In this document: in pieces, positions 15,401 through 51,531 of the stretch | How the letters are laid out: each line of letters begins with the position of its first letter | Numbering within the stretch: position 1 is the first letter of the stretch | Virus record (IMG/VR): IMGVR_UViG_3300021962_000075 | DNA: 64,000 nt | Reading direction: 5' to 3' (one strand) | DNA from: an uncultured virus (IMG/VR IMGVR_UViG_3300021962_000075) | Lineage: Duplodnaviria > Heunggongvirae > Uroviricota > Caudoviricetes | Translations under genes and position numbers: made by a program | Notes under the pieces: model-generated | Told to the model about the DNA's origin: nothing | The model's database searches: none | What the model saw: only the letters and a program-made list of their open reading frames with translations

Positions 15401-15612
15401 ATATTAATGGAAAAATTTATCTAACAAGTAACTTAAGTTCAAATGCAAATTCTTACCTTGATGTAAAACGCACCTTTGTTGCAAATAGTACACTAACATC
15501 AAGTCAAATAAAATTATATGGTCCAGTTGGACTCACATACATACCGGAAATCACCACAGAAGATGGTGATAATATTACAACAGAAGATGAGAACATAATC
15601 CTATTGGGGTAA
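12475..15612 (+). CDS. gp7: Baseplate wedge initiator
   Basis: QLPEHI..F..FIQAYYEWME, DVDTT..EFL, LYQTKGT..SYEFLFRVLF, QDDRYNNFTY, LLHPVG; follows gp6. Confidence 0.85.
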   Translation: MIDNGQLTSLLVKNQLPEHIRDNDEYQKFHTFIQAYYEWMEQTGKVTERTKNLLTYKDVDTTTEEFLDYFTNDFLPFFPKDTLLSKEETIKVARQLYQTKGTHASYEFLFRVLFNSEFEVFNTKEAVFKASAGTWYVSKSLKLASSNRNFLNTKNLRVFGLESKSIATIEAAVLVGDKTEIFISDIQRLFESGEFIKIVDSNNQDVLFDDEILTAKIVGQISQIKVNSVKRGSLYQPGDPVVVYDGMDDVTTGVGASAFVSETTKGSLQRISVVNGGFGYSLKPNTIVTIPNGGGAKANVYALAQYLPPSYTIVNGGTGYRINDRVIYDDSPFAFVTSVDENGSITSIKYVPSVNAQAVVSLTATVESSNPLAENAVIKTAAAVSNARANVSYITTDVIGFKEDILIGNSQFFFANMATANANTRLIDALSFSTLETSSIFSMIVDNGGGGISSIPEINVVSTIPTEDENDVYSAAHSDIAPLGILAPIQIINGGGWYQANDRIVFNGGSGYGAYANVTSVGANGAITGISYLFDPADPFPLYPLGGQGYKNEFLPSVTVNSANATASGAVLTVPGILGTGAEFSLVVDRVGSVTTISLDNYGEDYESQPGVSLKVQDIVVSNVAIENLPRKGEYIYQGPTINLATYTARVNSISLLAADANTELSLYNLQVFNYNANPNPNLMLKILGEDRNINLKMANSTFPQFAKSYTYFDASGNRTVFTRQYNKQGYITYGDGSAKANATFLNGLVIGQGQYLTSQGQPSSFDIMQDDRYNNFTYLITVDKEISKYREVLLGLLHPVGTNVLGRYGLKSNNQVDLHGYDALYSANPLSYYLGSYVNDAVTIVTDFDNKSNNIIRFNSLLGAPLDQIVTPYYSYINIETKNGPNVHSLIVDVDAEANTVTLESNVWLTYANVAVVTGNSGSNVLNITSLTGLYDLMNNGNYSDSEYPIRDIVYKGDVVLVDNNTSKTVNTVDYINGKIYLTSNLSSNANSYLDVKRTFVANSTLTSSQIKLYGPVGLTYIPEITTEDGDNITTEDENIILLG

Positions 15613-15615
15613 ACA

Positions 15616-17370
15616 ATGTCAACAGTAAAAATTTCGCAACTACCAACACTGGCTAATTTAGATGCCAATACATCCAACAGTTTGTTTATGGGTGTGGATG
15701 TAACCTCGGGTGTTACTGGTAAATTCACCGCACATACACTTGCACAAGGTTTGTTTTCAAATGAAATCTTGAACGTTGGTAACAACCAGACATTCTTACC
15801 AAACACTATTGCACAATTTTATGCGTCAGGTAATTCTTACATTCAAACCAACATTGTAAATTCAAATGATGGTGGTACGGCCGATATGGTAATTACTGCC
15901 AATACGGGTACAGATACAACATACTTCGTTGATTTTGGTTTTGCAAATAAAGATTTTGTTCCTGGTTCCGAATATAACAGTCTAGGCACCGCAATTTATC
16001 CGTTAGATGGTTACCTTTATGTACAAGGTGATGAAGGAGAACTCGGTGGTAACTTAACGATAGGTACAACCACAAGTAACACTGAGATTAAATTTGTGGC
16101 TGGTGGTTATAATGCAGGAAATGTAATTGCAAAAATTAAACATGGTGGTTTTTATTTGGTAAACGACCATACATTGACATTCTCCGATGGCAGTGTACAA
16201 GAAAGTTCAGCAATATTTGCAGAATCATTTGCTAACGGTGCATTTGTACATGCCAATGCTGCATATACCACAACAAATACCAACGTAACATTTGCTGGTA
16301 ACGCATACGATAAGGCAAACTCTGGTGCAACCTTTGCTAACGCAGCATTCACAAGAGCTAACTCCGGTTATGGTGTAGCAAACTCTGGTGCATCATTTGC
16401 TAACGGTGCTTTTGTTATGTCTAACTCTGCATATGCCGCAGCAAATTCTGGCGCAACATTTGCCAATGCAGCCTTCACAAGAGCTAACTCTGCATATGCA
16501 AAGGCAAACTCGGCACTTGCAAATACATCAGGTATATTCGATGGTTCACTAATCATTACACAAAACTTGGATGTTAATTCATCAATCAAGTTTGCAAATG
16601 CAACATTCACATCAACACAAGGTTTGGTTACAATCAGTGCATCAAATACTGGTGCAACTCAACCAACTGGGGGTGATGGTTATGTTTTACACATGACTGG
16701 TAAACATAACATTCCCGTTAGAGTAGTATCCGATTCTTTTGGTGCCAACGGGCAACTCGTTTTCCCATTGTTTGGTGGTCGTGCAGCAAGAGGTAATGTA
16801 ACTAATCCATCTGCGGTTCAAACAGGTGATGTTCTAACACGAATTGGTGCAAGTGGTTTTGGTGAAACATCATATCAATCTGGTGGTACGTCTAGAATAG
16901 ATTTTGTTGCAACAGAAAATCATACAGATACATCCAGAGGCACAGCAATTAAATTCTATAATGTACAAGAAGGTTCAAATACATTATCAGAAATTGCCAG
17001 TTTCAATGCAAACACAGTTACAATTACTGGTGTAGTTAATCCCGCAAAAGGTTTCATCTATACACCTAGAATTCTACAAGGTGCTCAGACCGCAATCACA
17101 ATCGACTTTGCAACAGACTCTATGGTTCGTGCTACATTCTCAGCAACAGTAACAAACACACTCGCAAACTATGTTGCAGGTAAAATTGTTGAAGTATGGT
17201 TAACAAATACAGCAGGTAACGGACAAACAGTTGTACACGGATGCTTGGCAAACAACTCGACTATTGGCGCAACTTCATTAACGGTTGCATCTGGTCGTTC
17301 AGTCTACTTAAAGTACTTTAGTATTAGCGGAGACAATGCAAATACTTTCGTTGCAGTAACATACGCATAA
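15616..17370 (+). CDS. Putative tail fibre / baseplate-attached fibre protein
   Basis: N-terminal VKISQLP motif, central ANxAF heptad repeats, beta-rich C-terminus. Confidence 0.65.
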   Translation: MSTVKISQLPTLANLDANTSNSLFMGVDVTSGVTGKFTAHTLAQGLFSNEILNVGNNQTFLPNTIAQFYASGNSYIQTNIVNSNDGGTADMVITANTGTDTTYFVDFGFANKDFVPGSEYNSLGTAIYPLDGYLYVQGDEGELGGNLTIGTTTSNTEIKFVAGGYNAGNVIAKIKHGGFYLVNDHTLTFSDGSVQESSAIFAESFANGAFVHANAAYTTTNTNVTFAGNAYDKANSGATFANAAFTRANSGYGVANSGASFANGAFVMSNSAYAAANSGATFANAAFTRANSAYAKANSALANTSGIFDGSLIITQNLDVNSSIKFANATFTSTQGLVTISASNTGATQPTGGDGYVLHMTGKHNIPVRVVSDSFGANGQLVFPLFGGRAARGNVTNPSAVQTGDVLTRIGASGFGETSYQSGGTSRIDFVATENHTDTSRGTAIKFYNVQEGSNTLSEIASFNANTVTITGVVNPAKGFIYTPRILQGAQTAITIDFATDSMVRATFSATVTNTLANYVAGKIVEVWLTNTAGNGQTVVHGCLANNSTIGATSLTVASGRSVYLKYFSISGDNANTFVAVTYA

Positions 17371-17380: not shown

Positions 17381-18760
17381 ATGGCAAATAAAAATATACT
17401 TACAAACGATTCAAAGGTCTCTCAAATAGACCTGTTGTATTATGCACCAGTTGCAGTGGTACCACCTGCAATCACAACACCAATTCATTCTTACTATTGT
17501 TTCTTGGCCAAGCCAACTCCATGGGTAGACGATAATAATCCAAACACACCTACAACTGATTTGAAATCTATCAAACAGATTCAAAAGAATATTTTTGTTA
17601 CGAAACAAATTAAGACCAGTGACATTTCACCAGTCATTCAACGAATTGATTGGCAAACAAATTGGATATATGATTACTTCCGTGATGATGTTGATATGTT
17701 GACTAAGGATGAAAATGGTTTTCTAACCAAATTATTCTATGTTAAAAACAGGTATGACCAAGTTTTCAAGTGTTTGTGGAATAATAATGGTGCAGAATCA
17801 ACAAGAGAACCGTACTTTGAACCTGGTACATATTCAGCCAACAAAATTTTCCAAGGTGATGATGGTTACAAATGGAAATTTATGTATACCATTGACACCG
17901 GACTGAAACTGAAATTCATGGACAGAGAATGGATGCCGGTGCAGGTGGGTTCAAACACGCCAAACCCATTGGTTACCAGTGCAGGTGCAGGTAGTATAGA
18001 TGTTATTAATGTCATAGATGGTGGGTCAGGATACGACACGGTCAATGCGGTTGTGTATGTCACTATCACAGGTGACGGAACAGGTGCAACTGCATCCGCA
18101 AACGTGGAGTCTTTGGTGGACGGTGGTTCAATCAGAGATATTATTGTGGTAAATCCAGGTAGTAACTATACATATGCCAACGTTGCAATAACTTCCGCAA
18201 TTGGTGGTAATGCAAACGTTACATGGGCAACTTCACCAATCGGCGGCCACGGATTTGATCCAATTTCTGAATTGGGTTGCGGTCACCTCATGTTGACTGC
18301 TGAATTTGATGGTGATGAAAATGGTTTTATACCCACAGATATTGACTACCATCAAGTTGGTATTTTGGTAAATCCAACAACAAAACAATTCAATCCAAAT
18401 CCAGCCAATGGTGTCATCTATAGTACAACAACAAATGTAGTTGTAGCACCAGGTTCAGATGCGGGTTATACACCAGATGAATTCATATATCAAGGCACTT
18501 TGGAGAATCCATCATTTTATGCAAACGTTTTGAGTTTTGATAGTGATTCCAACCTGATTAAGCTGATAAATACAACTGGAACTCCAGCAAATAACAGTCC
18601 AATATTTGGCCAAGATTCAAAGACAACAAGAACATTACTGTCATACAGTACTCCAAATTTTGCAGTTCATTCTGGTTATATGATTTATGTAGAAAATAGA
18701 TCCGGTGTTCAAAGAAGTACTGATGGTATAGAACAATTCAGATTCGTATTAGGTTTCTAA
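17381..18760 (+). CDS. gp8: Baseplate wedge subunit
   Basis: Y.FLAKPTPW, VIQRIDW, FYVKN..QVFKCLWN, DGYKWKFMYTI, GGHGFDPISELG, SGYMIYVENR..VQRS..E. Confidence 0.92.
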   Translation: MANKNILTNDSKVSQIDLLYYAPVAVVPPAITTPIHSYYCFLAKPTPWVDDNNPNTPTTDLKSIKQIQKNIFVTKQIKTSDISPVIQRIDWQTNWIYDYFRDDVDMLTKDENGFLTKLFYVKNRYDQVFKCLWNNNGAESTREPYFEPGTYSANKIFQGDDGYKWKFMYTIDTGLKLKFMDREWMPVQVGSNTPNPLVTSAGAGSIDVINVIDGGSGYDTVNAVVYVTITGDGTGATASANVESLVDGGSIRDIIVVNPGSNYTYANVAITSAIGGNANVTWATSPIGGHGFDPISELGCGHLMLTAEFDGDENGFIPTDIDYHQVGILVNPTTKQFNPNPANGVIYSTTTNVVVAPGSDAGYTPDEFIYQGTLENPSFYANVLSFDSDSNLIKLINTTGTPANNSPIFGQDSKTTRTLLSYSTPNFAVHSGYMIYVENRSGVQRSTDGIEQFRFVLGF

Positions 18761-25339: not shown

Positions 25340-28300
25340 ATGGCTAATACAGTTACCACATTAAATTATGCCAATACATTCGGCCATTGGTTGGCTGCAA
25401 CTGACGCATTGATTGCTGAAAATAATACATTGGCCAAAGATAATTATGTAAAAGATTCTGGTACAATTTATCTTTCAGAGGGAACATTAAACGCTTTACA
25501 ATCAAACGGTAACGTTATCGTACAAAAAGCGTTGATGGTCCAAGGTGTTGGTTCTTATGCAACAGTTCAAAATGATTTGACAGTTGAACGCCAAGGTCTA
25601 TTTACCAATACCGATTTGAGTATTGTTGCAACAGGTAATGTACAAGTTGGGAATACATTGATTGTATCTGGTGCAGGTTATGGTGTTCAAGTTGATAATG
25701 ATGCGTTGATTGGTGGTGATTTGGTAATTGGTGGTAACTTAGAACTAAACATTCTAGAAGCTAGACAAAAGGTCAACACAGAAACTTTGTCTGTAACAGG
25801 AACAACATACACCAACAAACTGCAATCAAATAACCAAGTTGTAACTGGCATACTCACTGCAAACACTAACATATACACAAGTCGTTTACAGTCAAACACT
25901 TCTATAACAACAACAGAAATTCAGGCTAATACCGTAATTAATGCTGCCACAATTTCTGTAACTACTGGCATGTATGGTAATTTACTACAAGCCAACTCAA
26001 GTGTTAATACTTCAAATGCATCCATTGTAAACACAGTATACACCAAAGACTTGCAAGCCAACTCAAGTGTTAATACTTCAAATGCATCCATTGTTAATAC
26101 ATTGTATGCAAAAAATTTGGTTGCTAATTCTAAAATAACTGTGCCTGATGCTTATGTTACATCGAATGCTCATATAACTGAGAATATATTTGTTTCGGGT
26201 TCAGGATATGCATATGATTTTTATGCAGCAAATACCGTGTTTAGTGATTCCATATATGCGAATACAGTTTACTTCCAAAACAATCTTACAACTGTAGGTA
26301 ATACCAATTCTACATCATTTTTTGCATCTTCAAATATAACCACACAAACACTATATTCATTAGATTCTTTTGGTGATTATCTTACTGCAAACCTACACAT
26401 TTATACACCATCAATTGACGTTGAGGGTACCACATTGACACGTTTTGTTCAAGCAAATTCGTCAATGAATACATCAAACTCAAGTGTGGTCAATACAAGT
26501 TACACAAAATATTTGATTGCAAACACACTGGTTACAACTGCTGGACTTAATTCTTTAGGTAAGACACATACAAATACTTTACAAGCCAACACTTCAGCAA
26601 ATACACAAACATTATCCGTTACTGAACGTGCATTAATTGACCGTGTTCAAGCCAATACATCCGTTAACACAGACATTTTAAGTGTTGGTACAATTGCATA
26701 TTCAAATAAATTTCAAGCAAACAATTCTGTAAATGCTGCTGTTATAAGTGTTAGTGGAAATGTGTACACAGATAAAGTGCAGGCAAATTCGGCCGTAAAT
26801 ACTGCAACACTAATGGTAACAGAAAAGATTGATGCGAATGATGCGTCAGTTTTTGTTCACGATTTGGAAACTTTGGGTTCATTATCTGTTGGTACTGATT
26901 TCATTATCAACGGCACAACAATTTATAACTCAGATACATTTACTTTAAATGCAAGTGCAGCTGACGGACAATTTGCTTATATTTCTGTAAACAGAGGTTC
27001 GTCTGGTGCTAATGCAGAGATTCGTTGGAATGAATCTAGTGAATGGTGGGACATTTATGAAACCAACAGTGGTGAATACTTCAGAATTCTAACTGATGAA
27101 CACATCAGTGACGTATTAGATTCTACTAATTCATTGGTTGTTGCTTCATCGGCAGCAGCTAATGCATTGAATGATAATATTCAAACAGCAAATACATATC
27201 TAAAAGGTCGTGTCACTTCAGCTGAAAGTTTTGCTAACAGTGCTTTTGTAAGAGCCAACTCATCCTATACTGCACAAAACACAACAGCGGCATTTGCTAA
27301 TGCGGCATTCAGACACGCTAACGCAGCTTTCGAATCTGCAAATAATGTGGCACCTCAAGTGGCACCAGCATACGGTCATGCTAATGCTGCATTTGATAAG
27401 GCTAATACTGTTGTATCAACTATCAAAGGAACAACAGGTTCTGTTACTGCAAGTAACGCTGGTATTACACTAAAGAGTAACAATGGTATTGTTATATTTG
27501 CCACAAATGATAACAGTACTGGTAACACACTTGCAATTAGTACTTCACAAGACCTAAGAACAACTGGTTCACCAACTTTTGCCGGTTTGTCACTGACAAC
27601 TCCACTACAAGTTGGCCAAGGTGGTACAGGAACAACATCCTATGCATCATTATTTGGTTTAGCAATAACTGCTGCAGCAGGTTCTGGTGCTGACGGAAAG
27701 GTTCTTGGTACAGATGGTGCTGGTGGTTATTCTTGGGTAACAGGTGGTTCAGGTGGAGGTGGTGGTACACAACCAGGTTCTAGAATCAGTTCATCACGTT
27801 TATCATATACCGGTGATGACCTTACTTCAAAATTTACCACACCAACGCATAGTGTTGGTACACAACTACGTGCATACATTAATGGTGTTCGTCAACTAGA
27901 ATCTGAATACTGGTCATTCACTGCAAACTCAATCATATGGTTTAAATCACCACCAGTAACAGGTGATTCAATACTCATTGAAGTTGATGGTTATGCTGTG
28001 TATGAATACTTTGCAAATAATATTGTTTATGGTCCTGCTTCAGGTGACATTGTTGGTTCAACCATTCAAGATGCAATTGATAACCTAGAAACAAGAAAGA
28101 TGCCAAAAGGTGGTGGCACATTTACAGGCCGTGTTGAAGGCCTAACGATGCCAACAACAACGTCAAATACTGTATTTGCAACAACTCAATTTGTAAATCA
28201 ACTTGCAAACTCTAATTATACATTCTCACATAGTATTAGTGGTAACGCAGGATCAGTAACAAATGGACTATATTCAAGTGTTACATATGAAAATCCTTCT

Positions 28301-37741: not shown

Positions 37742-40700
37742 TGTTTAATTCTGGTATTCTTGGAAAAAGGTCAAAGGATACAACAGGTATTGTTTCTGTC
37801 CGTGACAACTTTAACCAACAAAATTATCCGGTACCTACAATTACCAGTTTTTCAGTTACGGATGAATCTTACAATCCAACGGATGATACTGCAATTGATA
37901 CAGCAGGCGGACAAACTATTGTTTTAAATGGTTATGGTTTTGCGCCTGGTATCACCGTTATGGTTAATTCTTCGAACATAAGTGTCGTAACATATATTGA
38001 TCCTAACAGAATATCTTTCACCGCACCAGCATTATCTTCAGGTAGTTATACGGTTTATGCAACTAACGTTAATGGTGGTACAGCAATATTGGTACCAGGT
38101 TTAGTTTATTCAGGAATACCAACATTTACAACATCTGCTGGTTCATTAGGTTCATATTACGAAACAACTTCTATCAACACCTCTGTTAGTGCAACCGGTG
38201 ATACACCAATTACATACTCTGTGGTATCAGGATCATTGCCTTCTGGTGCAACATTAAGTTCAAACGGAACTCTTTCAGGTACAGCTCCAGCTGATTACTC
38301 AAGTTCAACTTATTCATTCGTCATTCAAGCAAGTGATGCTGAAAATCAAGATACTATTCGTTCATTCAATTTAACAATCAATACGGATGTTGTGTCGTTT
38401 TCCACACCAGCAAACAATGTAACATATAATGTTATGGGAAATAGTCCAATATCAAATGTTACTGCAAGCGCAACATCAGCTGCAGGTTATGGTGTATTAT
38501 ATTCATCTACAGGCCTACCCACTGGTTTAACGATTGATGCTGGAACAGGTGTTATATCAGGAACACCAACAGTTGAAGCAAGTAATAATTCAATCATAAC
38601 CGCAACAGCAAATACAACAACTCGTTCTTCAACATTATATATTAATTGGGTTGTTTCTTTAGGTGATTTGTATTGGAAACAAACATCATTATTATTGAAT
38701 GGTGAAACTCCTGTAACACCATATATTAGTGATGCAAGTGCTAATAATGTAGCGTTAACTGTTGTTGGTAATCCGGTTCCAACAAAATTTAATCCATACC
38801 AAGATGGTTACTACAGTAATTATTTTGATGGTACTGGGGATTATTTAACTGCTGCTTCAAGTACAGCTTTTCAACTTGGCACCGGAGATTACACGTTCGA
38901 AGCTTGGATATACCCAACTGCGTTAGGTTCAAATAATAGTAATAATATTTTGAATATTGGTACTTATATAACCGGATTATTGATTAGATGTGCGGCAACT
39001 ACAGGTATTGAAATTTACACCAACAATACACAACGTTTACTTACTGCAACCGGACTCACACAAAATGCTTGGCAGCATATTGCATTAGTTAGAAGCGGAA
39101 GCTCTTGTACATTTTATGTAAATGGCACCAGTATTGGTACATTTACAGATTCTAGTAGTATTTCTCCTGCAACGGCTACAGTTACAATCGGTATGGCAGC
39201 ACATAATAGCAGTGAATTCTTTACTGGTTATATGAGTAATTACAGATTGGTAAAGGGTACAGCAGTATATACATCCGCATTTACTCCATCAACATCACCA
39301 TTAACTGCTATTTCAGGTACAAGTTTATTAACTTGCCAATCAAACAGATTAATTGATAAATCATCTAATGCATTTACTATTACAAAAAATGGTGACACAT
39401 CAGTAACACAAGTGCAACCATTTACAGTTTCGAATGATTATACTGGAGTTTATTTTCCATCCACATCCGATTATTCAACATTTACCGGAACTACCGCACA
39501 AGTTTTTGGTACAGGTGATTTTACAGTTGAATGTTGGGTGTATGCAACTAATACTGGTACAACAACTGGTCATAATATTTCAAGGCCATCAACTTTGACC
39601 AATACGTGGTCACTGCAAACATATAATAGCGCACTAAACTGGTTATTCGGTTCAACAACTCTAGGAACTGGTGCCGTTCCAGTATATGCATGGTCACACC
39701 TTTGTGTCAGTCGTGTTTCTGGTGTAACAAAAGGATTTGTAAACGGAACGCAAACATTCTCTGTAGCAGATACAAACAATTACTCAGCATCACCAACTAG
39801 ACCTATTGGTCCTGGTGGAGGTGGTGCAGCGGTGTTCTATGTTTCTGATTTCAGAGTTGTTGTTGGATCCGGAGTAACATCAGTCACTGTACCTACATCA
39901 CCATTAACAGCAATAACAAACACACAATTATTGACTCACCAATATAGTGGTGCTGTAGTTAATCAAACTATTATAGACAACGGACAATTCAATAACATTA
40001 TCACAAGAAACGGTAATGCAAGTCAAGGTACATTTAGTCCTTATAGTCAAACTGGCTGGAGTAATTTCTTTGATGGTAGTGGTGATTATATAGATGTTAC
40101 TGGAATACCTGTGGCAGCAACAGGACAATTCACAGTTGAAGCATGGATATACACCAACAAAGTTAATAGTTCTACCAATCAGATGATATACTCACAGTAT
40201 AACACAACCGATTCTAATAGATTTACTATTAATATAAACACATCCAACAAATTAACAGTGACACATCCTTCAGGTAACATCACTGGTGCAACAACAATAA
40301 CACCATATCAATGGAATCATATTGCGGTAACTAGAGATGCAAGCAATACACTTAGAATATTTTTAAATGGTGTAGTTGATGCATCATCGTCAAGTTGGAC
40401 AAATTCAATATTTCAAACCAATGCAAGGATTGGATATTATCCAAACACTCCACTAGATTACTTTAATGGTTATATCAGTAATCTAAGAGTATTGAGTGGG
40501 ACTGGATTATACACTGAAGCATTCACACTACCAACCACAGCATTAACTGCAATAGCAAACACAACTTTATTAACTTGTGGATCAAACAGATTTGTTGATA
40601 ATTCAAATAATAATTATACATTAACTAGAACTGGTGATGTGTCAGTTCAAGCCTTTAGTCCATTTGGAGGAACAGCTTATAATCCAAGTTTGCATGGTGG

Positions 40701-41805
40701 CAGTGTATACTTTGACGGTAGTGGTGATTATCTCACAATTCCAACTAGTACAAATTTCGGATTCGGTTCAGGAGATTTTACTGTTGAGTTTTGGGTATAT
40801 CCTACAGCTACCACCAGACAAGACTGGATAGACATTACAGATGGAACAAATAGAGTTTTGGTTTATTATAGTGGTAGCGCAATCACATTCTATAGTGTAC
40901 CTACAAATGCTGCAGCAATTACCGGACCTGCAATTGTCGCCAGACAATGGTATCATATAGCGTTATCAAAAAGTTCTGGTTCTTCTAGACTATTTGTTAA
41001 TGGCGTTCAAGTTGGTGCTACATACGCAACAAATCAAACTTATTCAGCAACAATGCCAATAACAATTGGTAAAGACAGTGCCGGATCAACACACGTTACT
41101 GGTTATATCAGTGATATTAGGATCACTAAAGGCTTAGGAATATATACTGCAAATACTTCGGTACCAACTACGCCGGCGACAAATTATTCCACATCTAGAC
41201 CAGCAAGTTTGTTATTGAATATGAATAATGGCGGTATAACTGACAAACACAGTAGTCATACATTTGAAACAGTGGGTAATGCTCAATTAAGTACTGCTGT
41301 CAAAAAGTATGGTAGTGCTAGTATGTATTTTGACGGCAACGGAGATAGATTAGTAATTCCATACTCAACTTTATTTTCACAAATGCAACCATATACGGTT
41401 GAATTTTGGTTCTATCCAACAAATAATGGTGTTACCGGTCAATATATATTTGCTCGAAATTCAGGTGGTTTTTTTAATCTCAATTGGTTCGGAACTATTA
41501 TGAGGGTAGACAAACAAGGTACGGGTATACAGATTACCGGATCAACTACCATGGCAGTAAATCAATGGCACCATTTTGCCATGACGTATGATGGCACCAA
41601 CACAAAGATATGGGTAAATGGTGTATTAGATGGTTCTGTTGCCGGTACAAGTACTAGTGATACTAGCGCAAATATAACTATTGGATACTATGAAGCTTCA
41701 GGAACATCTTCTTACTATGGTTACATAGATGATTTTAAGTTTACTAAAGGTGTGGCACTTTACACTTCCAACTTCACACCACCAACACAATTACTAACAT
41801 CATAA
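37741..41805 (+). CDS. Large adhesin with IPT/Ig-like repeats and four LamG/ConA-like lectin domains
   Basis: PTITSFS..GGQTIVLNG.GF (IPT/TIG-like); SGSLPSG.TLSS.G.LSGT and GLPTGLTID..TG.ISGTPT (putative Ig); repeated S.YFDG.GDY..GTGDFT.E.W.Y..W.HIA..R...F.NG..GY.S..R. Confidence 0.85.
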   Translation: MFNSGILGKRSKDTTGIVSVRDNFNQQNYPVPTITSFSVTDESYNPTDDTAIDTAGGQTIVLNGYGFAPGITVMVNSSNISVVTYIDPNRISFTAPALSSGSYTVYATNVNGGTAILVPGLVYSGIPTFTTSAGSLGSYYETTSINTSVSATGDTPITYSVVSGSLPSGATLSSNGTLSGTAPADYSSSTYSFVIQASDAENQDTIRSFNLTINTDVVSFSTPANNVTYNVMGNSPISNVTASATSAAGYGVLYSSTGLPTGLTIDAGTGVISGTPTVEASNNSIITATANTTTRSSTLYINWVVSLGDLYWKQTSLLLNGETPVTPYISDASANNVALTVVGNPVPTKFNPYQDGYYSNYFDGTGDYLTAASSTAFQLGTGDYTFEAWIYPTALGSNNSNNILNIGTYITGLLIRCAATTGIEIYTNNTQRLLTATGLTQNAWQHIALVRSGSSCTFYVNGTSIGTFTDSSSISPATATVTIGMAAHNSSEFFTGYMSNYRLVKGTAVYTSAFTPSTSPLTAISGTSLLTCQSNRLIDKSSNAFTITKNGDTSVTQVQPFTVSNDYTGVYFPSTSDYSTFTGTTAQVFGTGDFTVECWVYATNTGTTTGHNISRPSTLTNTWSLQTYNSALNWLFGSTTLGTGAVPVYAWSHLCVSRVSGVTKGFVNGTQTFSVADTNNYSASPTRPIGPGGGGAAVFYVSDFRVVVGSGVTSVTVPTSPLTAITNTQLLTHQYSGAVVNQTIIDNGQFNNIITRNGNASQGTFSPYSQTGWSNFFDGSGDYIDVTGIPVAATGQFTVEAWIYTNKVNSSTNQMIYSQYNTTDSNRFTININTSNKLTVTHPSGNITGATTITPYQWNHIAVTRDASNTLRIFLNGVVDASSSSWTNSIFQTNARIGYYPNTPLDYFNGYISNLRVLSGTGLYTEAFTLPTTALTAIANTTLLTCGSNRFVDNSNNNYTLTRTGDVSVQAFSPFGGTAYNPSLHGGSVYFDGSGDYLTIPTSTNFGFGSGDFTVEFWVYPTATTRQDWIDITDGTNRVLVYYSGSAITFYSVPTNAAAITGPAIVARQWYHIALSKSSGSSRLFVNGVQVGATYATNQTYSATMPITIGKDSAGSTHVTGYISDIRITKGLGIYTANTSVPTTPATNYSTSRPASLLLNMNNGGITDKHSSHTFETVGNAQLSTAVKKYGSASMYFDGNGDRLVIPYSTLFSQMQPYTVEFWFYPTNNGVTGQYIFARNSGGFFNLNWFGTIMRVDKQGTGIQITGSTTMAVNQWHHFAMTYDGTNTKIWVNGVLDGSVAGTSTSDTSANITIGYYEASGTSSYYGYIDDFKFTKGVALYTSNFTPPTQLLTS

Positions 41806-41823: not shown

Positions 41824-42867
41824 ATGTCAACACAAGTAACTCCATCAAGATTAGATTCAACTAAAGATTTTTCGTCTTTGGTGCCGTCTGCCTATGCGGC
41901 AGCAAACGCAGCTTTTGTGCAGGCAAATGCTGCCTTTGCTCAAGCAAATACAGGTGGTGGCGGTGCGGGTTCAGATGCTTGGGCCAGAGATACAGCTAAT
42001 GCATCATTCCTACAAGCAAACTCTGCGGCATCATTTGCCAATGGTTCTTTTGTAACCGCCAACACAGCTGCAAGTTTTGCCAATGGTGCTTTCTTAAGAG
42101 CCAACGCATCATATACAGCTCAAAACACTACGGCTGAATTTGCTAATGGTTCTTTTTTAACTGCTAACTCGGCAGCCAGCTTTGCTAATGCAGCATATCA
42201 ATCACAAAATACTACCGCATCATTTGCTAATGGTTCTTTCATTGCGGCAAACTCAGCAGGTTCATTTGCCAATGCAGCCTTTGTAACAGCCAACTCTGGT
42301 GCATCATTTGCCAATTCTGCATATGCACATGCCAATGCAGCATATGCTCAAGCAAATACTGGTGGGTCAGGTACAGATGCATGGGCAAGAGATACAGCAA
42401 ATGCCGCTTATGCACATGCAAACGCAGCCTTTACAACAGCTAATACTGGCGGTGGTGGCGGCTCAGACACATGGGCTAGAGCACAGGCCAATGCTGCGTT
42501 TGCAAAAGCAAATTCTGAAATTATAATTTTCGCAGTAACAGACGACACATCAAATATCACAGTCAGTTCTGCTAGGGCGTCATTCAGAGCACCTTCTGCA
42601 ATGACATTAACTGGTCTACCTAGAGCATCACTAAATGTTGCTTCAACATCCGGTATAGTTAACGTTGATATTAAGATAGCAGGAACAACAATACTTGGTT
42701 CAAATAAATTAACAATAGATGCAACAGAAAAAACCAGTACAACTGCTGCAACACCAACAACATATGTGACAACATCGGTAGCTGATGATGCGGAAATTAG
42801 TGTTGATATTCTTGGTGCTGGTACAGGTGCAAAAGGTTTAAAGATAACTCTTTACTATACGGATTAA
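41824..42867 (+). CDS. Stalk/adaptor protein (ANxAF repeats plus C-terminal beta domain)
   Basis: DxWAR..ANAAF x3; C-terminal FRAP.AMTL..LPRASL..ASTSG...AKGLK.TLYY shared with 45387. Confidence 0.75.
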   Translation: MSTQVTPSRLDSTKDFSSLVPSAYAAANAAFVQANAAFAQANTGGGGAGSDAWARDTANASFLQANSAASFANGSFVTANTAASFANGAFLRANASYTAQNTTAEFANGSFLTANSAASFANAAYQSQNTTASFANGSFIAANSAGSFANAAFVTANSGASFANSAYAHANAAYAQANTGGSGTDAWARDTANAAYAHANAAFTTANTGGGGGSDTWARAQANAAFAKANSEIIIFAVTDDTSNITVSSARASFRAPSAMTLTGLPRASLNVASTSGIVNVDIKIAGTTILGSNKLTIDATEKTSTTAATPTTYVTTSVADDAEISVDILGAGTGAKGLKITLYYTD

Positions 42868-42868
42868 T

Positions 42869-44953
42869 ATGTCGGGTGTTATGTTTATTAATAATGCAGT
42901 GAATTACATAGCATTAGCGGGTCAAGAAGAATGGACATCCAGTTCAGGTACTTTTACTTGGATTGTACCTAGAGGTGTCTATGAAATTCATGTTTGTTGT
43001 ATTGGTGGTGGAGGCGGTGGCGGAGCTCACGCTACTGCACCAGCTGGCGGTGGTTATGGTGGTTCGTTAGCATGGGGTAATAAAATACCAGTAACACCTG
43101 GAGAACAAATAACCGTTCGGGTGGGTGACGGGGGTGGTAATGCAATTGGCACTGGTGTAAGTGGTGGTTCCGGCGGCGAATCTTATATCGCAAGAGGTGC
43201 CACAAGATTGTTAAGTGCTGCTGGTGGTCCAGGTGGTGGAACAACATTAGCAGGTACAAATCAAAGTACAACTTCAACAGCAGTTAGTGGAACAAATAGT
43301 GTATATGGTTTAACTGACGCATCTTATAGTCACGGTGGACCATCATATGTAACTAACGCAACATCAAGTGAGAGATGTTCTGGCGGTGGCGGCGCAGCAG
43401 GATACGCCTCAATTGCAAACATTGGAACAATCACAGGTGGAATTGGTGGACCCAATAATACCGGATACACATCAGGGACCAGTGGCGGTAGCGGAGGTGG
43501 TTCCGGAGGCATTTCATCTGACACTGGAGGTGCTGGTGGAGGTACAGGACCATGGGGTCAAGGCACTAGCGGATCAGCCGCTTCAACAACAGGTGGTTGG
43601 GCTGGCGTAGGTGGTTCGGGTGGCCTGCCGACTGCAAGTTTTGAGAGTCCACCTGCACAATCTATCGCATCAGCTTGGAGTGCATCAAGTTGGTCACCCA
43701 ATGCAGGATTATTTGGCGGTGGTGGCGGCGGTGGATTAAACTCAAACCCAGGTACAGGTTCCGGTTTCGGTGCAAGAGGTTGTGTGAGAATAATGTGGGG
43801 AGAAGGCAGAGGGTATCCTTCAACAAATACAGGTGACTACTATGGTTCAACCGCTGTAACAAGTAGTCAACAAAATTATTTTACGCCAGGAACATATACA
43901 TGGACTGTTCCAGCAGGCGTTAGAGAATTTTCAGTGTGCGCTATAGGTGGTGGCGGAGCAGGTATGCAAGGCACTACTACAACAGGAAAAGGCAGTGGTG
44001 GTGGTGGCGCTTTAGCGTGGGCGAATTTCAAGTGTGAACCTGGAGAATCATTTACTGTAGTAGCCGGTGCTGCAGGACAATCAACTGCATTAAACACTGC
44101 AACCGCAGGTGGTGCCAGTACTGTTACTAGAAACGTTTCGTTTAAAGGGTTTATATCAGGAACAAATTTGTACATTACTGAAATGATTTCAGGATTAATA
44201 ACAACCGCAATAACTATAACGGGCTCGGGTGTAACATCAACAACAATAAATGCATTTCAAACGGGTGAATATGGTAAAGAAGGAACTTATACGATAGGTA
44301 CTTCACAAACAGTAGGAACATTAGACTCACCAATCACATTTAGTGGTACTTTGTTATTAATGACAGCTGGCGGCGGTGGTGCTGCTTTAGCTGTTGGTGG
44401 TGGCACACCATCAGGAGGAACATATTCTGTACACTCAACTGCAAAAAGTAGTGGAGGCATGAGTGGCGGTGCTGGTGGCACAAGTAACTCATCGACAACT
44501 GCGTTTGGTGGTAGTGGAGGTGGTGCAGGAGGATACCAAGGCACAGCAGGCGGTGCCGGAAGAAATTCATCTTCAGCTCTAAATGGAAACTATCCAACAC
44601 CATATGTAGCTAATAGAATTTCAATGACGGGTGGATCATCGAGTGGACGTAATGGTGGTGCTGCGGGTGCGATGGGTGCTGGCGGTGGTGGTACAGGAAT
44701 ATATGGCACAGGTAGAGAGCCTGGACAAGATACTGGTCAAGTATCTTCAGCACTTAATTCAGGTGGTGTTGCAGGCAGCGGAGGACAAGACGGTACCGCA
44801 CCAGCAGGCACTGGCCAAGGTGGCCAGTTCGGAGGTGGCGGCGGCGGATCAGGTAACAACTACACTGCTGGTCGAGCAAACGGTGGAATTGGTGGTGTAA
44901 GAATAACTTGGGGTGCTAGACACAAGTATCCCGCACCAACAACAGATGTTTAA
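42869..44953 (+). CDS. Glycine-rich adhesin-like protein, two tandem Gly-rich domains
   Basis: Two copies of GT(F/Y)TW.VP.GV....V..IGGGG.G ... G.VRI.WG...YP. Confidence 0.8.
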   Translation: MSGVMFINNAVNYIALAGQEEWTSSSGTFTWIVPRGVYEIHVCCIGGGGGGGAHATAPAGGGYGGSLAWGNKIPVTPGEQITVRVGDGGGNAIGTGVSGGSGGESYIARGATRLLSAAGGPGGGTTLAGTNQSTTSTAVSGTNSVYGLTDASYSHGGPSYVTNATSSERCSGGGGAAGYASIANIGTITGGIGGPNNTGYTSGTSGGSGGGSGGISSDTGGAGGGTGPWGQGTSGSAASTTGGWAGVGGSGGLPTASFESPPAQSIASAWSASSWSPNAGLFGGGGGGGLNSNPGTGSGFGARGCVRIMWGEGRGYPSTNTGDYYGSTAVTSSQQNYFTPGTYTWTVPAGVREFSVCAIGGGGAGMQGTTTTGKGSGGGGALAWANFKCEPGESFTVVAGAAGQSTALNTATAGGASTVTRNVSFKGFISGTNLYITEMISGLITTAITITGSGVTSTTINAFQTGEYGKEGTYTIGTSQTVGTLDSPITFSGTLLLMTAGGGGAALAVGGGTPSGGTYSVHSTAKSSGGMSGGAGGTSNSSTTAFGGSGGGAGGYQGTAGGAGRNSSSALNGNYPTPYVANRISMTGGSSSGRNGGAAGAMGAGGGGTGIYGTGREPGQDTGQVSSALNSGGVAGSGGQDGTAPAGTGQGGQFGGGGGGSGNNYTAGRANGGIGGVRITWGARHKYPAPTTDV

Positions 44954-44966: not shown

Positions 44967-45380
44967 ATGAATTTATGTATTGAAATTTATGAAGGCAATC
45001 CAATCAATCATCCAATCCAACAATCCAATTTGGAAATGATTTATCCTGGTATAGATTTTGAAAATTTACCTGAAAAATATTGTAAATTTGTTCGTGTTGA
45101 GAAACCATTTCCTAAATGGGATGAAGTTATTGAAGGACCAGAATACAAAATTATTGATGGTGTTTGTTATGATGTATGGACAATTAATAAAATTTCTGAT
45201 GAAGAACGTCAGCAAAAAATTGCAGATTTAGTTGCATCTTGTCCTTATCCATCATGGACAATAGATTATGAAAATCATAATATAATACCACCAACGCCAA
45301 TGCCAGAACAAGGTTCTTGGACATGGGACGAAGCAACTCTTTCTTGGGTCGAATATGTGGAACCAACAGACAACATATAA
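44967..45380 (+). CDS. Acidic Trp/Pro-rich partner of Gly-rich fibre (assembly chaperone-like)
   Basis: PYPSW, PPTPMP..W.WDEATLSW motifs; follows the Gly-rich gene. Confidence 0.65.
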   Translation: MNLCIEIYEGNPINHPIQQSNLEMIYPGIDFENLPEKYCKFVRVEKPFPKWDEVIEGPEYKIIDGVCYDVWTINKISDEERQQKIADLVASCPYPSWTIDYENHNIIPPTPMPEQGSWTWDEATLSWVEYVEPTDNI

Positions 45381-45386: not shown

Positions 45387-45854
45387 ATGACAACAAAAAT
45401 AAAACTACCCAATATAGACACATCGTATGATTATTCATCTTTGGTACCAGCATCATTTGCACAGGCTAATGCGGCATTTTTATCTGCAAACAATGCAGGT
45501 AATGTTTATATGACGATAGCTCTTAGTGATGAAACAACTGCAATTACAACAGGTACATCAAAAGTAACTTTCAGAGCACCACATGCAATGACATTAAATC
45601 AATTACCTAGAGCATCACTAGCTACTGCAAGTACATCAGGTAATCCAGCAATTGATATTAATAAAAACGGCACAAGTATTTTTAGCACCACATTAACCAT
45701 AGATGCTAACGAAAAAACAAGTGTGACTGCCGCAACGCCCGCAGTGTTGTCCACCACAACGTTTGCAGATGATGATGAAATAACTATGGATATAGATACA
45801 GCCGGTACAGACGCAAAAGGATTAAAAGTCACATTATATTATAGAAGAACATGA
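45387..45854 (+). CDS. Short paralog of the 41824 stalk/adaptor protein
   Basis: Similar N-terminus (..SSLVP..A.ANAAF) and the same C-terminal domain as 41824, almost no stalk. Confidence 0.75.
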   Translation: MTTKIKLPNIDTSYDYSSLVPASFAQANAAFLSANNAGNVYMTIALSDETTAITTGTSKVTFRAPHAMTLNQLPRASLATASTSGNPAIDINKNGTSIFSTTLTIDANEKTSVTAATPAVLSTTTFADDDEITMDIDTAGTDAKGLKVTLYYRRT

Positions 45855-46798
45855 GATTTCTTATAAATTCATATGTACTTGGGGCTTCTGGCGTTGCACC
45901 AGGTCAACAAGAATATACAACACCAGGAACATATAGTTTTGTTGTACCAACAGGTGTAACAAGTGTATCTGTTGTTTGTATTGGTGGTGGCGGTGCAGGT
46001 TCAGTCGGCGGCGGCGCATCATCAAGAACTCCAGGTGGCGGCGGTGGCGGCCTAGGGTATAAAAATAACATATCAGTTACTCCAGGAGCAAGTTATACGG
46101 TTGTTGTTGGTGCAGGCCAAACTAGATTGGCTGTGTCTACTGCAACAGACGTTTATCCTGGTGGTTCAGGTGGCGATAGTTATTTTATAGATACATCTAC
46201 AGTTAAAGGTGGTGGCGGTGGCGGCGCAGGAAGCAATGCTGGTTCATCAGGCGGCAGTTATGTTGGTGATGGAGGTGGTGCTGGCGGCGGTGTGACAGGA
46301 AACACTAGTGACCGAGCAGAAGGTGGTGGCGGCGCTGGCGGATACTCTGGTACAGGTGGTATCGGAGGCCAAGCAAACAGTAATAGTGGTAACGGTGGTT
46401 CAGGATCAGGCGGCGGAGGCGGAGGCGGCGGTGCTGCATGGACTACAAGTGGCAGTTCTTATCGTGCGGGTTCGGGTGGTGGAACAGGATTATTAGGCCA
46501 AGGATCAAACGGTACTGGCGGCACATTTAATAGTGGTGCTGGGACTGGCGGTTCAAATCCGCAAGGTGGAGGTGGTGGCGGTGGTTCTGGTGGTGGAAAT
46601 GGTACAAGCGGCGGCATATCAACATCAGACACAAACATAGGTGGTAGTTATGGCGGTGGTGGTGGTGGTGTATCAAGAAATACAGGAACAGTGTATAGTG
46701 GCAGTGGGCAAAATGGAGGTGTCCGTATTATGTGGGCTGGTACCAGAGTGGGTGATGTATCAAGAGCCTACCCATCGACAAATACAGGAAACTTATAA
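45851..46798 (+). CDS. Glycine-rich adhesin-like protein, one domain
   Basis: GQQEYTTPGTYSFVVPTGVTSVSVVCIGGGG ... GGVRIMW...YPSTNTG, homologous to the domains in 42869. Confidence 0.8.
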   Translation: MRFLINSYVLGASGVAPGQQEYTTPGTYSFVVPTGVTSVSVVCIGGGGAGSVGGGASSRTPGGGGGGLGYKNNISVTPGASYTVVVGAGQTRLAVSTATDVYPGGSGGDSYFIDTSTVKGGGGGGAGSNAGSSGGSYVGDGGGAGGGVTGNTSDRAEGGGGAGGYSGTGGIGGQANSNSGNGGSGSGGGGGGGGAAWTTSGSSYRAGSGGGTGLLGQGSNGTGGTFNSGAGTGGSNPQGGGGGGGSGGGNGTSGGISTSDTNIGGSYGGGGGGVSRNTGTVYSGSGQNGGVRIMWAGTRVGDVSRAYPSTNTGNL

Positions 46799-46831: not shown

Positions 46832-46848
46832 CCCTATAGGGGGAAAAC

Positions 46849-47622: not shown

Positions 47623-47623
47623 T

Positions 47624-49521: not shown

Positions 49522-49539
49522 ACAAAACGAGAGAATTAA

Positions 49540-51531
49540 ATGTCTAAACAAACTATTAATATTGGTATTAGAGCAAATGATGGTAAAGGTGATTCATTAC
49601 GAGTTGCTTTTACTAAAACAAATAACAACTTCACTGAGTTGTATACCACAGTTGCAAATAATTCTAATACATCAAACACCTACTATGAAACCAACCAAGA
49701 GTTGGCACAGAATGCTTACAACAAGGCAAACACCGCATCACTAGGTGACATTTTGTTTGACCACACAACGATGTATAGTAATACTCACGTTGAAGTTGGT
49801 AATGACCACCATGGCCGCAGAGCATGGGGTTTAACATTTGGCCAAACAACAACAGTTGCAAATAGTGTTTTTGGTACCAGTGTTGCATTTGATACTGCAA
49901 ATAATATTTTGGTTGCAATGACAACTCCAAATGAAGTTACGGGTCTACCACAATCAACAGTTATTAAATTTGATCCATATGGATCAATTTTCTGGAGAAA
50001 ATCGGTACCAGCATCAAACGTAAACAATACATTACTACCAAGTTATGCCGAATCTGTTGCTGTTGATGCAAACAACAACGTGTATCTATTAACAAATATA
50101 CCAGATGATTCATCAACACTGGTAACCAAGTTTAACTATCTTGGTCAAAATGTATGGAATACCTTAATTTCTGATTCTATTGGTTCAACTGAAATTGTTG
50201 TTGATGACCAAGAATTTCCATACTACATTGGTCAACACAATTTAATTACAGGTTTAGATATTACAGGTGAATTATATTTCACACACTTTAATGCAGGTAT
50301 AGGTAATGCATATTCTATTATTACATTACCAACTGCATATAGTGGAGGTGGTGTGTTGGTTGGTTCGGATAATGGTCATGTACACAAGTTTGATACAGAA
50401 GGTGTTTATTTGTGGTCAAACGAAGTTGATTCTGGTGGAAATCACATCGTATCATTAACTTATGATACCTCAAATAATTGGTATGCAGCAACAAACACAA
50501 ACATTTATAAGTTTAGAGCCAACAATCAATTAATTTGGGAAAAAGAAATAACAGGATTAAATGCAAATCTTTCCGCAATTAAATATAGTGGTGATTATTT
50601 GTATGCAACACAAACAGGTACAGTAGAAAATAATGAAAGAGGTTTTGTAAACTATAAGTTACATGCAGCAAACGGAGAACTTGTTTGGGCAAATGCATTA
50701 CAAATACCTTACGTTGATAATGAACACCGAAATGGTTACCGAAACTTTGATGTTAAAGGTGACTTCATGGTTGGTGTTGGCCATGCTTCTTTTGATGTAG
50801 ATGTTGCAACAATATACCAATTACCCGTTGATGGTACTTTGGCAGGAACTTATTTTGGTGCTCAGTCTACGAAGTGGGCTGAAGGTAATCCTATAGAATT
50901 TACATACGTTACTGTACCAGAAGCTGGAACTACAACAAGTTCAACAGTTGGTTCAGGCAATACAACAATAACTATTGCAGAGAATACCAACTATTCTTAC
51001 ACAATGAATACTGTTGTATATCAAAACCCAAGTCCAGAAAACGAAGAAACATTAACATATTTCACACAAAATTGGGACTTCACTGGAGACGGAACATTAG
51101 TTATTCCATCTTCTGGTTCTGATTTGGCAATAGAGTTTAGCGGTAAAGGTGTTGCTAACGTTGGTTCAATCACTGCTAGAACTGCTGCAGCGACATGGAA
51201 TGGAAATACTTCATTTGAATTAGATGTTACTGCATTAATTAATAAATTAACACCACAACTAGGTGATGGTGGTGAACAATATCACTTAGCGGATGGCGTT
51301 GAAGGTCAAATAATGTATATTGTTCCAGGAACTGGTGGCGAGATGAATAATCAATTCACAACTATGTCTTTTGATAATGCAAGATGGTCTAATGGTAATG
51401 GTGTGATTAATGAAAATACATCAGTGTCTTGGTGGTTGCCATTTCAAAACCCAAATGGTGGCAGTACTGCTGTACTAACTTTGATATTCACTGACGGCGC
51501 TTGGAACCTACCACACAACTGGTTCGATTAA
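49540..51531 (+). CDS. Fibre-like protein with T4 gp9/gp10-like N-terminus and beta-propeller
   Basis: MSKQTINIG..ANDG.GDSLR.AF.K.N.NF.ELY; repeated (V/I)AVD..NN.Y / KF...G...W blades. Confidence 0.75.
   Translation: MSKQTINIGIRANDGKGDSLRVAFTKTNNNFTELYTTVANNSNTSNTYYETNQELAQNAYNKANTASLGDILFDHTTMYSNTHVEVGNDHHGRRAWGLTFGQTTTVANSVFGTSVAFDTANNILVAMTTPNEVTGLPQSTVIKFDPYGSIFWRKSVPASNVNNTLLPSYAESVAVDANNNVYLLTNIPDDSSTLVTKFNYLGQNVWNTLISDSIGSTEIVVDDQEFPYYIGQHNLITGLDITGELYFTHFNAGIGNAYSIITLPTAYSGGGVLVGSDNGHVHKFDTEGVYLWSNEVDSGGNHIVSLTYDTSNNWYAATNTNIYKFRANNQLIWEKEITGLNANLSAIKYSGDYLYATQTGTVENNERGFVNYKLHAANGELVWANALQIPYVDNEHRNGYRNFDVKGDFMVGVGHASFDVDVATIYQLPVDGTLAGTYFGAQSTKWAEGNPIEFTYVTVPEAGTTTSSTVGSGNTTITIAENTNYSYTMNTVVYQNPSPENEETLTYFTQNWDFTGDGTLVIPSSGSDLAIEFSGKGVANVGSITARTAAATWNGNTSFELDVTALINKLTPQLGDGGEQYHLADGVEGQIMYIVPGTGGEMNNQFTTMSFDNARWSNGNGVINENTSVSWWLPFQNPNGGSTAVLTLIFTDGAWNLPHNWFD

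Follow-up and report, generated by a model that had tools for sequence, protein, structure and literature searches.

Tail fibres that are assembled from several pieces through dedicated junctions are textbook knowledge for phage T4. The pieces of the T4 long tail fibre are successive and adjacently encoded, and its knee is a small non-fibrous protein, gp35. Here we analyse a 64,000-nucleotide stretch of an uncultured virus of the Caudoviricetes (IMG/VR record IMGVR_UViG_3300021962_000075), hereafter the window, whose plus strand carries the tail module of a T4-like myovirus together with its fibre genes. An earlier inspection of the letters and translations alone (the sequence-only reading) had proposed that short end motifs and the start domains of neighbouring genes form six plug-and-socket pairs, which would assemble a branched virion appendage. 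Each end and start motif on that list was confirmed at the position given. The members of two of these pairs, a jelly-roll knob with an N-terminal peptide and a joint around a protein of ~110 residues, lie side by side in other genomes far more often than chance would give.

Several features connect the window with T4. The N-terminal module of gp37 is common to the genes 34378 and 31458 (genes are named by their first position; Table 1), the gp36 end D-F-G-Y-Y resembles the window motif D-G-G-x-F, and the counterpart of the knee would be a 110-amino acid (aa) jelly roll between a hydrophobic tail and a YIGN head. Among the window proteins, BLASTP (E<=0.01) detected homologues of gp37 only and none of gp34, gp35, gp36 or gp38, in a pairwise search that would miss remote homology. 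In T2 and S16, the fibre is capped by a Gly-rich adhesin with a gene of its own (gp38), an arrangement that has been compared with gp24 of phage Pam3 (PMC9608196). Pam3 gp24 combines a TNF-like and a glycine-rich domain (PDB 7ypx/7yfw). The window proteins 42869 and 45851 likewise match Gly_rich_2, match gp24 weakly (E 0.015), and judged by their sequences are likely receptor-binding heads. According to the same source, gp24 docks on the baseplate by a long N-terminal helical bundle, whereas the window proteins have a short N-terminal peptide and lie behind a knob-bearing fibre. Compared with T4, T2 and S16, the window adhesin is proposed to dock on a jelly-roll knob by this short peptide, and the window has more pieces and several types of tip.

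A second group of related systems is formed by branched receptor-binding proteins (RBPs), which combine an anchor and a T4gp10-like branching domain with a docking peptide. In Klebsiella phage KP32, a conserved N-terminal peptide that docks on a branching domain was experimentally essential and transplantable (PMC13352976). Throughout these systems (KP32, K11, KP34, CBA120, G7C), such a peptide on the second RBP docks on a domain of the first. The window shares with them a Gp10_C-like stretch in 29566 and a conserved N-terminal peptide on next-encoded proteins, here paired with a jelly-roll knob. In contrast to the branched systems, the proposed socket is a C-terminal knob or a free-standing 110-aa protein rather than a gp10-like domain, and the peptide motifs differ. 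Multi-gene fibres of podoviruses have been discussed by Hardies and colleagues (PMC4819975). Outside phages, small jelly rolls like both window domains serve in the anchoring of Bacillus exosporium and Ena structures, where ExsFA/BxpB trimers hold N-terminal peptides of BclA or F-Anchor and Ena subunits have connectors; structure 9h3d, in which an exosporium-type jelly roll holds a terminal peptide, is similar in fold to both. This likeness concerns the fold only (Foldseek E 1e-3 to 1e-2, VIA Z 6-9), with no sequence relation and another biology.

The literature searched, which covers the field in part, contained no description of the knob/peptide pair or of the joint around the 110-aa protein. 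Nevertheless, the initial statement that such a connector code is undescribed as a system was too strong, since the T4 long tail fibre and the KP32 docking peptide embody the principle. The principle of joining pieces by conserved ends is thus already known, and what is apparently new are two widespread, unnamed connector modules. Comparisons within the lineage were made with six genomes, namely the window and five more distant relatives (gp6 57-66% and gp13 71-77% identity). A near-identical viral contig of 104.6 kb (G001) was uninformative because of its near-identity.

A C-terminal jelly-roll knob precedes proteins with a short N-terminal peptide

The mini-fibre 45387 ends in a 116-residue domain (FRAP..GLK.TLYY), which we call the knob and which also ends the heptad fibre 41824. 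Each copy is followed by a Gly-rich protein (41824 by 42869, 45387 by 45851), as first proposed (2/2 in the window), and the start of 45851 overlaps the stop of the knob gene 45387. The knob of 45387 models as a jelly roll, with a predicted local distance difference test score (pLDDT) of 97 over residues 41-155. Its highest-scoring fold match is the jelly roll that ends the long tail fibre of phage 7-7-1 (9rkv_M, Z 9.8, root-mean-square deviation 7.7, 131 aligned residues; fibre described in PMC12796354). Knobs of C1q, TNF and BclA type come next, with Z 6-7, and Z 7-8 is a common best score for this tool. Sequence databases gave little: no Pfam family was found for the knob (0/43 alignment members above chance-level matches), the ESM Atlas returned unnamed viral clusters only, PHROG matches of the knob and of the 108-aa protein 35410 were weak and unnamed, and a PDB sequence search with the knob protein, 31726 and the 119-aa protein 37382 gave nothing meaningful.

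The knob is widespread. An exhaustive HMMER search (E<=1e-3) yielded 9,697 cluster representatives; among the 150 listed, it is located at the extreme C-end of proteins of 114-1363 aa or occurs in tandem copies. We assembled 86 knob loci (78 viral contigs and eight GenBank loci of named phages), which collapse into 50 clusters at 90% identity. The knob is the C-terminal end of its protein in 49 of these, and the downstream gene starts at -16 to +10 nucleotides (nt) in 46. Within the first 30 residues of the downstream protein, a loose 'plug' motif, [LIVMFYT][LIVMT][NDG][PS][FYW], was present in 32/50 clusters compared to 3/469 control open reading frames (ORFs), i.e., the remaining ORFs of these loci with a length of 100 aa or more (Fisher p ~1e-34, a value that overstates independence because the plug clusters are mutually related). 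For the strict motif, the counts were 28/50 and 1/469. Knob ends are of a YY or an IG type and plugs of an NS or an NP type, and relatedness confounds any covariation between the two. After removal of their first 25 residues, 49 downstream proteins fell into 39 BLAST families, and the plug motif was found in 25 of them. These proteins include Gly_rich_2, D-Ala-D-Ala carboxypeptidase (Peptidase_S11) plus LamG, and discoidin-like types. Records of podo-, sipho- and myovirus type, from phages of many hosts, carry the knob; culturable examples are Sphingomonas phage Carli, Polaromonas phage Tiera, Microcystis phage Mwe-JY26 and Synechococcus phage S-CRM01. In two loci (L083 and L085), the knob and a LamG-like domain share one reading frame as a fusion, and there the plug motif is absent.

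These observations suggest that a C-terminal jelly-roll knob on a fibre stalk would receive the peptide M-x(1-3)-(I/L)(I/L)-N-(P/S)-(Y/F) at the N-terminus of the next-encoded tip protein. In the window, the tips behind the knobs would be Gly-rich adhesin-like proteins. The pair is the best supported of the six, and its partners may bind each other. It may represent a beta-hairpin split over two genes, because the plug begins directly after the last strand of the knob and the natural fusion lacks the plug. A complex prediction with three knobs (residues 38-155) and full-length 45851 returned a score of 0.02 (mark 0.32), which was taken as no answer, neither for nor against.

Two observations were made in the vicinity of such genes. 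Small proteins with ends like that of 44967 adjoin fibre genes in Melnitz and in the contigs G003 and G004, and 44967 is possibly a fibre-assembly helper. In addition, the contig G002 carries seven tandem genes of 266-321 aa (~37280-43482 of the concatenated stretch, L176-L177) with a common N-terminal peptide, M-x-(L/I)-x-I-G-x-G-I-x-x-G, and two different kinds of C-terminal end. Some of the products resemble circularly permuted Gly-rich heads, in that the strand ..Y-K-F-T-G-S-G-S-I-T-F is C-terminal and not near the N-end. From its sequence, the shared peptide may be a third kind of plug.

A hydrophobic tail, a ~110-residue jelly roll and a YIG head form a conserved triple

The sequence-only reading had paired the hydrophobic end IAxxIxF with a 110-aa adaptor. 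This pair was borne out and is actually a triple that includes a downstream head. In the window, the ends ..IAFTIAFS (34378) and ..IAMAIVFGL (35738) are followed by genes for 108 aa (35410) and 119 aa (37382), respectively, and the two small proteins align with an hhalign probability of 82% (E 1.1e-5, 74 columns). The model of 35410 is a jelly roll of eight strands, similar to a trimeric phage cement protein, to a virus turret and to subunits of Ena spore appendages (VIA Z 9.3-9.8). Foldseek also gives ExsFA/BxpB and the ExsF-peptide complex 9h3d, and in all cases the likeness is one of fold only. No Pfam family was found for the 108-aa protein (0/30 alignment members above chance-level matches). 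A match to Tako8 (E 1.8e-20) was rejected as an artefact, in which seven weak stretches (E 0.19-0.77 each) were summed over a designed perfect repeat.

A search with the 108-aa protein gave 80 loci, representing 41 distinct contexts. The upstream gene ends in a hydrophobic tail (..AFAIALG, ..ALAIALG, ..AFTIAFS) in 40/41 contexts. Where a downstream ORF is present, it starts 0-2 nt later with an (F/Y)..(I/L)G head (40/40), and this head protein often carries F-x-G-x-G-x-x-T-x-F, i.e., the GDGSTTxF motif reported for the window, which matches the Pfam T7 fibre N-domain. Starting instead from the tail, 38 of 1,814 mechanical ORFs end in the motif, and an ORF of 95-130 aa follows in 36 of the 38, a count that is biased by the way the loci were fetched. 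Homologues of the 108-aa protein are present in 42 named phage records in GenBank. Six of these were examined (HTVC010P, HMO-2011, S-TIM5, RHph_Y65, PhiW-14 and Yersinia GN1); the tail lies upstream in all six, and the head M-x-(Y/H)-(I/L)-G lies downstream in four. The upstream gene of PhiW-14 bears the annotation of a gp36-like hinge connector.

We propose that a fibre tail of the type ..A-x-A-I-A-L-G would be followed by the ~110-residue jelly-roll protein, probably an oligomer, and then by the next piece beginning with M-x-Y-I-G, often with a T7-fibre-N-like domain. In its action, such a three-part joint would correspond to the knee of T4 (gp34-gp35-gp36).

The gp7 tail and the KISQL fibre covary

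The gp7-like wedge protein 12475 ends in ..TTEDGDNITTEDENIILLG, its last ~20 residues forming a TTEDG..TTED..ILLG tail, and the next gene, 15616, starts with MSTVKISQLP. This pair had also been predicted and is kept in all six genomes. In a wider set of 80 loci (42 distinct contexts), tail and KISQL fibre occur together in 37/42 when the tails are read by eye. A strict regular expression undercounts the tail (19/42), and the five non-matches by eye comprise three wrong-frame picks and two different tails. Both elements are absent from the four named relatives Mosig, Melnitz, Cr30 and DLP_6. In Mosig and Melnitz, a fibre whose start is of the gp9/10-N type lies between gp7 and gp8 instead, and in Cr30 and DLP_6 this place is without a fibre. 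Judged from these sequences, tail and fibre covary, on few independent events. The acidic tail of gp7 would meet the KISQL-start fibre in a lineage-specific joint.

A putative junction of the T4 gp36/gp37 type

Four consecutive genes (30921, 31458, 31726 and 33681) encode D(G/S)GxF(S) ends, and three (31458, 31726 and 34378) have an Mtd-N-like, i.e., gp37-N-like, start. The start of 34378 is 41% identical to residues 7-45 of T4 gp37 over 39 residues (BLASTP, E 5e-4), and T4 gp36 ends in ..QDFGYY. In the window lineage, the QGGTG fibre with its ..PVW...DGGxF end (31726, ..PVWTSTLDGGQF), the coiled-coil protein and a gene with a gp37-N-like start stay together. The coiled-coil protein follows the 31726-type fibre in 41/43 distinct contexts and ends in DGGxF in 23/25 complete cases; a gp37-N-like start comes next in 25/25 complete cases and, in a second count, in 26/29 contexts. 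The proposed DGGxF/Mtd-N-like pair therefore stands only in part: its motifs are real and match the T4 gp36/gp37 junction, but the pair is not a general rule, as 31726 is followed by the coiled-coil protein. Where it applies, the C-terminal D-G-G-x-F would meet the gp37-N-like start as in T4, an assignment made from sequence for which the evidence is mostly conserved synteny in one lineage.

The gene 30570, which precedes the long chain of DGGxF genes, is kept in all five relatives. A counterpart of 31458 is kept as a gene for 73-74 aa in G002 and G004, and 31458 could act as a minimal adaptor or could be a remnant that selection has preserved.

Two proposed pairs and a beta-propeller protein

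The six pairs were expected to be enriched as neighbours across genomes. Recurrence side by side in further genomes was found for four of them, namely those described above, and not for the other two. None of the five MTTKI-start genes in the six genomes follows a gene with a GDGSTTxF domain; this domain instead follows the ~110-aa protein. Likewise, the C-ends of gp15, whose acidic tail had been matched with a gp9-like start, are not conserved in the six genomes, and a gp9/10-N-start gene lies behind gp15 in only 3/6. In Mosig and Melnitz, the gp9/10-N-start protein adjoins gp7.

In the T4 baseplate, gp9 and gp10 dock on the wedge. By analogy, the propeller protein 49540, which matches Pfam T4_gp9_10_N with E 0.0011 (below the family cut-off), most likely docks on the baseplate and not on gp15. 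Therefore, the suggestion that gene order roughly reflects assembly order does not always hold.

Spacers, tips and predicted chains

The three spacer repeats described between the docking parts (ANxAF, TVDxxGR and QGGTG) are all real. 35738 contains 22 AN.A[FY] motifs at a spacing of 7 or 14 residues, TVDxxGR occurs three times in 29566, and QGGTG occurs four times in 31726, ~67 residues apart. Repeats are also extensively shared among the window fibre genes in an all-against-all BLAST. The candidate tips were confirmed by Pfam, with five Laminin_G_3 stretches instead of the four first counted, two plus one Gly_rich_2 domains, PQQ_2 and Peptidase_S74. For Gly_rich_2 (PF21722), 42869 scored 62.3 bits and 45851 scored 27.9 bits at a cut-off of 24.3. 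The Gp10_C match of 29566 lies on residues 275-307 and covers only 32 of the 139 profile positions.

From these motifs, one chain would lead from gp7 to 15616. A long chain would comprise 30921, 31458, 31726, 33681, 34378, 35410, 35738 and 37382, with the LamG protein 37741 as its tip. Gly-rich heads would terminate two short chains, from 41824 to 42869 and from 45387 to 45851. Three more proteins would be separate fibres, namely 25340 with its S74 domain, 29566 with its gp10_C stretch and the propeller protein 49540. The traceable parts are mostly linear jointed chains, with no demonstrated tree of the kind that had been envisaged.

Genomic context of the fibre genes

In a megablast search against named phage records, the window had no near relative, and positions 29000-47000 were without any match. 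By sheath protein, the nearest named phages (~50% identity) are Pelagibacter Mosig and HTVC008M, Methylophilales Melnitz and Stenotrophomonas DLP_6. The features discussed are listed in Table 1.

Table 1. Genes and features of the window, in order of position (single numbers are gene starts)
Feature	Position	Strand	Basis or remark
gp25, gp6, gp7-like wedge protein	10006, 10400, 12475	+	followed by ~20 fibre/accessory genes
gp7-like baseplate wedge protein, 1045 aa	12475..15612	+	Pfam Baseplate_wedge (weak); tblastn to Cr30 and phiM12 wedge subunits
584-aa fibre, M-S-T-V-K-I-S-Q-L start, ANxAF heptads, between gp7 and gp8	15616..17370	+	same slot and start in 6/6 genomes
gp8-like baseplate protein	17381..18760	+	Pfam Phage-Gp8, E 3.1e-7
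1409-aa fibre, C-terminal Peptidase_S74 intramolecular chaperone domain	25340..29569	+	PF13884, E 5.3e-17, residues 1318-1370, full profile
324-aa protein, MTTKI start, TVDxxGR repeats, T4 gp10 C-terminal-like stretch	29566..30540	+	Pfam Gp10_C, E 4.3e-8
113-aa protein	30570-30911	+	phrog_3304 'L-shaped tail fiber protein assembly', E 2.7e-16; weak BppU_N
177-aa protein ending ..GADSGFF	30921..31454	+	relatives end D(A/G)G(F/Y/T/L)F in 5/5
74-aa mini-protein, gp37-N-like start and DGGIFS end	31458..31682	+	BLAST to T4 gp37 N-terminus, E 0.002
636-aa fibre, gp37-N-like start, QGGTG/TVDxxGR repeats, ..PVWTSTLDGGQF end	31726..33636	+	phrog_15769 matches C-end
230-aa coiled-coil protein ending ..KDGGTF, conserved partner of upstream fibre	33681..34373	+	context counts
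333-aa fibre, gp37-N-like start, ANxAF heptads, hydrophobic ..IIAFTIAFS end	34378..35379	+	BLAST to T4 gp37
108-aa jelly-roll protein, putative joint	35410..35736	+	model (pLDDT 93), fold matches
544-aa fibre, M-Q-F-T-Y-I-G-N start, two T7-fibre-N-like (GDGSTTxF) domains	35738..37372	+	Pfam Phage_T7_tail, E 1.1e-5
119-aa protein, putative second joint	37382..37741	+	remote homologue of 108-aa protein; context kept in 6 loci
1354-aa candidate tip, repeated LamG and He_PIG Ig domains	37741..41805	+	Laminin_G_3, E 9e-88; He_PIG, E 2.5e-13
347-aa heptad fibre with jelly-roll knob (putative socket, ~42481-42864) at end	41824..42867	+	57% identity to 45387 over knob
694-aa protein, two Gly_rich_2 domains	42869..44953	+	Pfam PF21722, E 8.9e-17, 2 stretches; internal self-similarity
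137-aa small protein ending W.WDE..SW..	44967..45380	+	phrog_7759, weak
155-aa mini-fibre, MTTKI start, short helix, jelly-roll knob (putative socket, 45504-45851)	45387..45854	+	model, profile search
315-aa Gly_rich_2 tip protein, residues 3-8 F-L-I-N-S-Y (putative plug)	45851..46798	+	Pfam, neighbour statistics
gp13, gp14, gp15	46849, 47624, 48505	+	downstream of fibre genes
663-aa protein, T4 gp9/gp10-N-like start and beta-propeller	49540..51531	+	PQQ_2, E 1.8e-6; phrog_677, E 1e-4
Terminase subunits, sheath, tube, portal	51547 and 51959, 53715, 55432, 56036	+	after gp15

Directly after gp8, a giant protein of 2114 aa with DUF4815 (E 4e-64) is encoded at 18770-25114. Its equivalent is annotated as 'VrlC protein' in Mosig and DLP_6 and is apparently split into two ORFs in G004 and G006. 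At 42000-48000, the G+C content is raised to 0.41-0.46 (~0.36-0.39 elsewhere in the window) and the GC skew is strongly positive, which coincides with the glycine-rich (GGN-codon) genes 42869 and 45851.

In the relative G004, a 185-aa ORF with an HNH-like start lies between gp13 and gp14 (42337-42894 of the concatenated stretch, L179/L180), gp14 begins later than in the other genomes, and gp6 contains one in-frame TAA. The sequence suggests a homing-endonuclease insertion between gp13 and gp14. The fibre regions of G003-G006 (L178-L188) contain inserted blocks of non-fibre genes that are absent from the window, including radical-SAM-like starts, 2OG-Fe oxygenase-like starts and glycosyltransferase-like ORFs. 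Such inserts, as far as their sequences tell, may serve the modification of fibres or of host surface sugars.

Discussion

On balance, we lean cautiously towards reading the region as several multi-protein tail fibres, in which small conserved domains accept the short end peptides of adjoining pieces and so hold the pieces together. What was observed are the motifs, the statistics of their neighbourhood, the modelled folds of two small domains and a natural fusion, and docking of terminal peptides on small domains is plausible. Several points weigh against this reading. For every pair, we infer the contact between the partners, their stoichiometry and the presence of all pieces in the virion, and the label 'virion structural protein' that depositors and the Atlas give to homologues of the joint protein was not traced to proteomic data. 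The plug motif is missing from 18 of the 50 knob loci, and the clusters that have it are related to each other. Of the two knob cassettes in the window, only 45387/45851 has a good plug; 42869 starts with MSGVMFINN.., a degenerate plug at best that fails even the loose motif. The counts for the gp7/KISQL and gp36/gp37-type joints come largely from a single phage lineage, in which conservation of gene order would by itself produce the same numbers. Finally, DGGxF ends four different proteins and no matching start comes after 31726, which leaves its binder ambiguous.

Conserved gene order is also the core of an alternative explanation, in which a block of genes with shared terminal modules was inherited after tandem duplication and module shuffling, and neighbours make no contact. 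The conserved ends would then cap trimers, nucleate folding or attach to a common third partner, e.g., the baseplate. This would fit the lineage-bound pairs, since the gp7/KISQL and DGGxF pairs occur almost only in relatives that have the whole block, as well as the DGGxF ends on four neighbours and the repeats common to the fibre genes. We nevertheless regard it as somewhat unlikely, because the proteins downstream of the knob belong to 39 unrelated families in podo-, sipho- and myovirus-type carriers of many hosts, the three-part joint recurs in unrelated named phages (tail in 6/6, head in 4/6), and the knob-LamG fusion lacks the plug. The position immediately 3' of a fibre gene is the classical place of Tfa-type helpers, and the 108- and 119-aa proteins, possibly together with some knob-downstream proteins, might be assembly chaperones that bind the fibre tail and then leave, like T4 gp38, Mu/P2 Tfa or Pam3 gp25, which follows the Gly-rich fibre gp24 (PMC9608196). 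However, the 108-aa protein models as a compact jelly roll, unlike the beta-sandwich-plus-helical-bundle described there for gp25, and in 40/40 contexts the next gene, again fibre-like, begins only 0-2 nt later in translational coupling. Moreover, depositors have given homologues of the 108-aa protein the label 'virion structural protein', and the proteins behind the knob have binding-type domains (LamG, Gly_rich_2, discoidin-like). A chaperone role is thus distinctly unlikely.

It is very improbable that the jelly-roll knob is itself the receptor-binding tip and the next gene encodes an independent tail protein that merely shares the operon. The fold matches to the 7-7-1 fibre and then to C1q, TNF and BclA are in line with such a tip. 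On the other hand, knobs from phages with very different hosts share 50-90% identity, unlike a host-specific tip. Both the N-terminal peptide, conserved in 25 of the 39 unrelated families behind the knob, and the near-universal abutment of stop and start would be left unexplained. Returning to the reading of jointed multi-protein fibres, a wider version of it treats both the knob/peptide pair and the triple of tail, 110-aa protein and head as general, portable snap-fit connectors. With them, podo-, sipho- and myoviruses of many hosts could place almost any binding domain on almost any fibre. We offer this version tentatively, as a possibility rather than an expectation.

At present, the host range of uncultured aquatic phages is not readable from sequence. 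If the joints are real, fibre islands like that of the window could be parsed into chains and tips, and the genes that truly determine specificity could be recognised as the variable tip genes following a constant socket. Phage engineering would then have two small, very common modules as connectors in addition to the Klebsiella docking peptide. Should the connectors also prove portable, the knob/peptide pair and the triple would be ready-made parts for retargeting phages, and host range in a large share of aquatic phages would be reshuffled by swaps of whole tip genes behind a constant socket.

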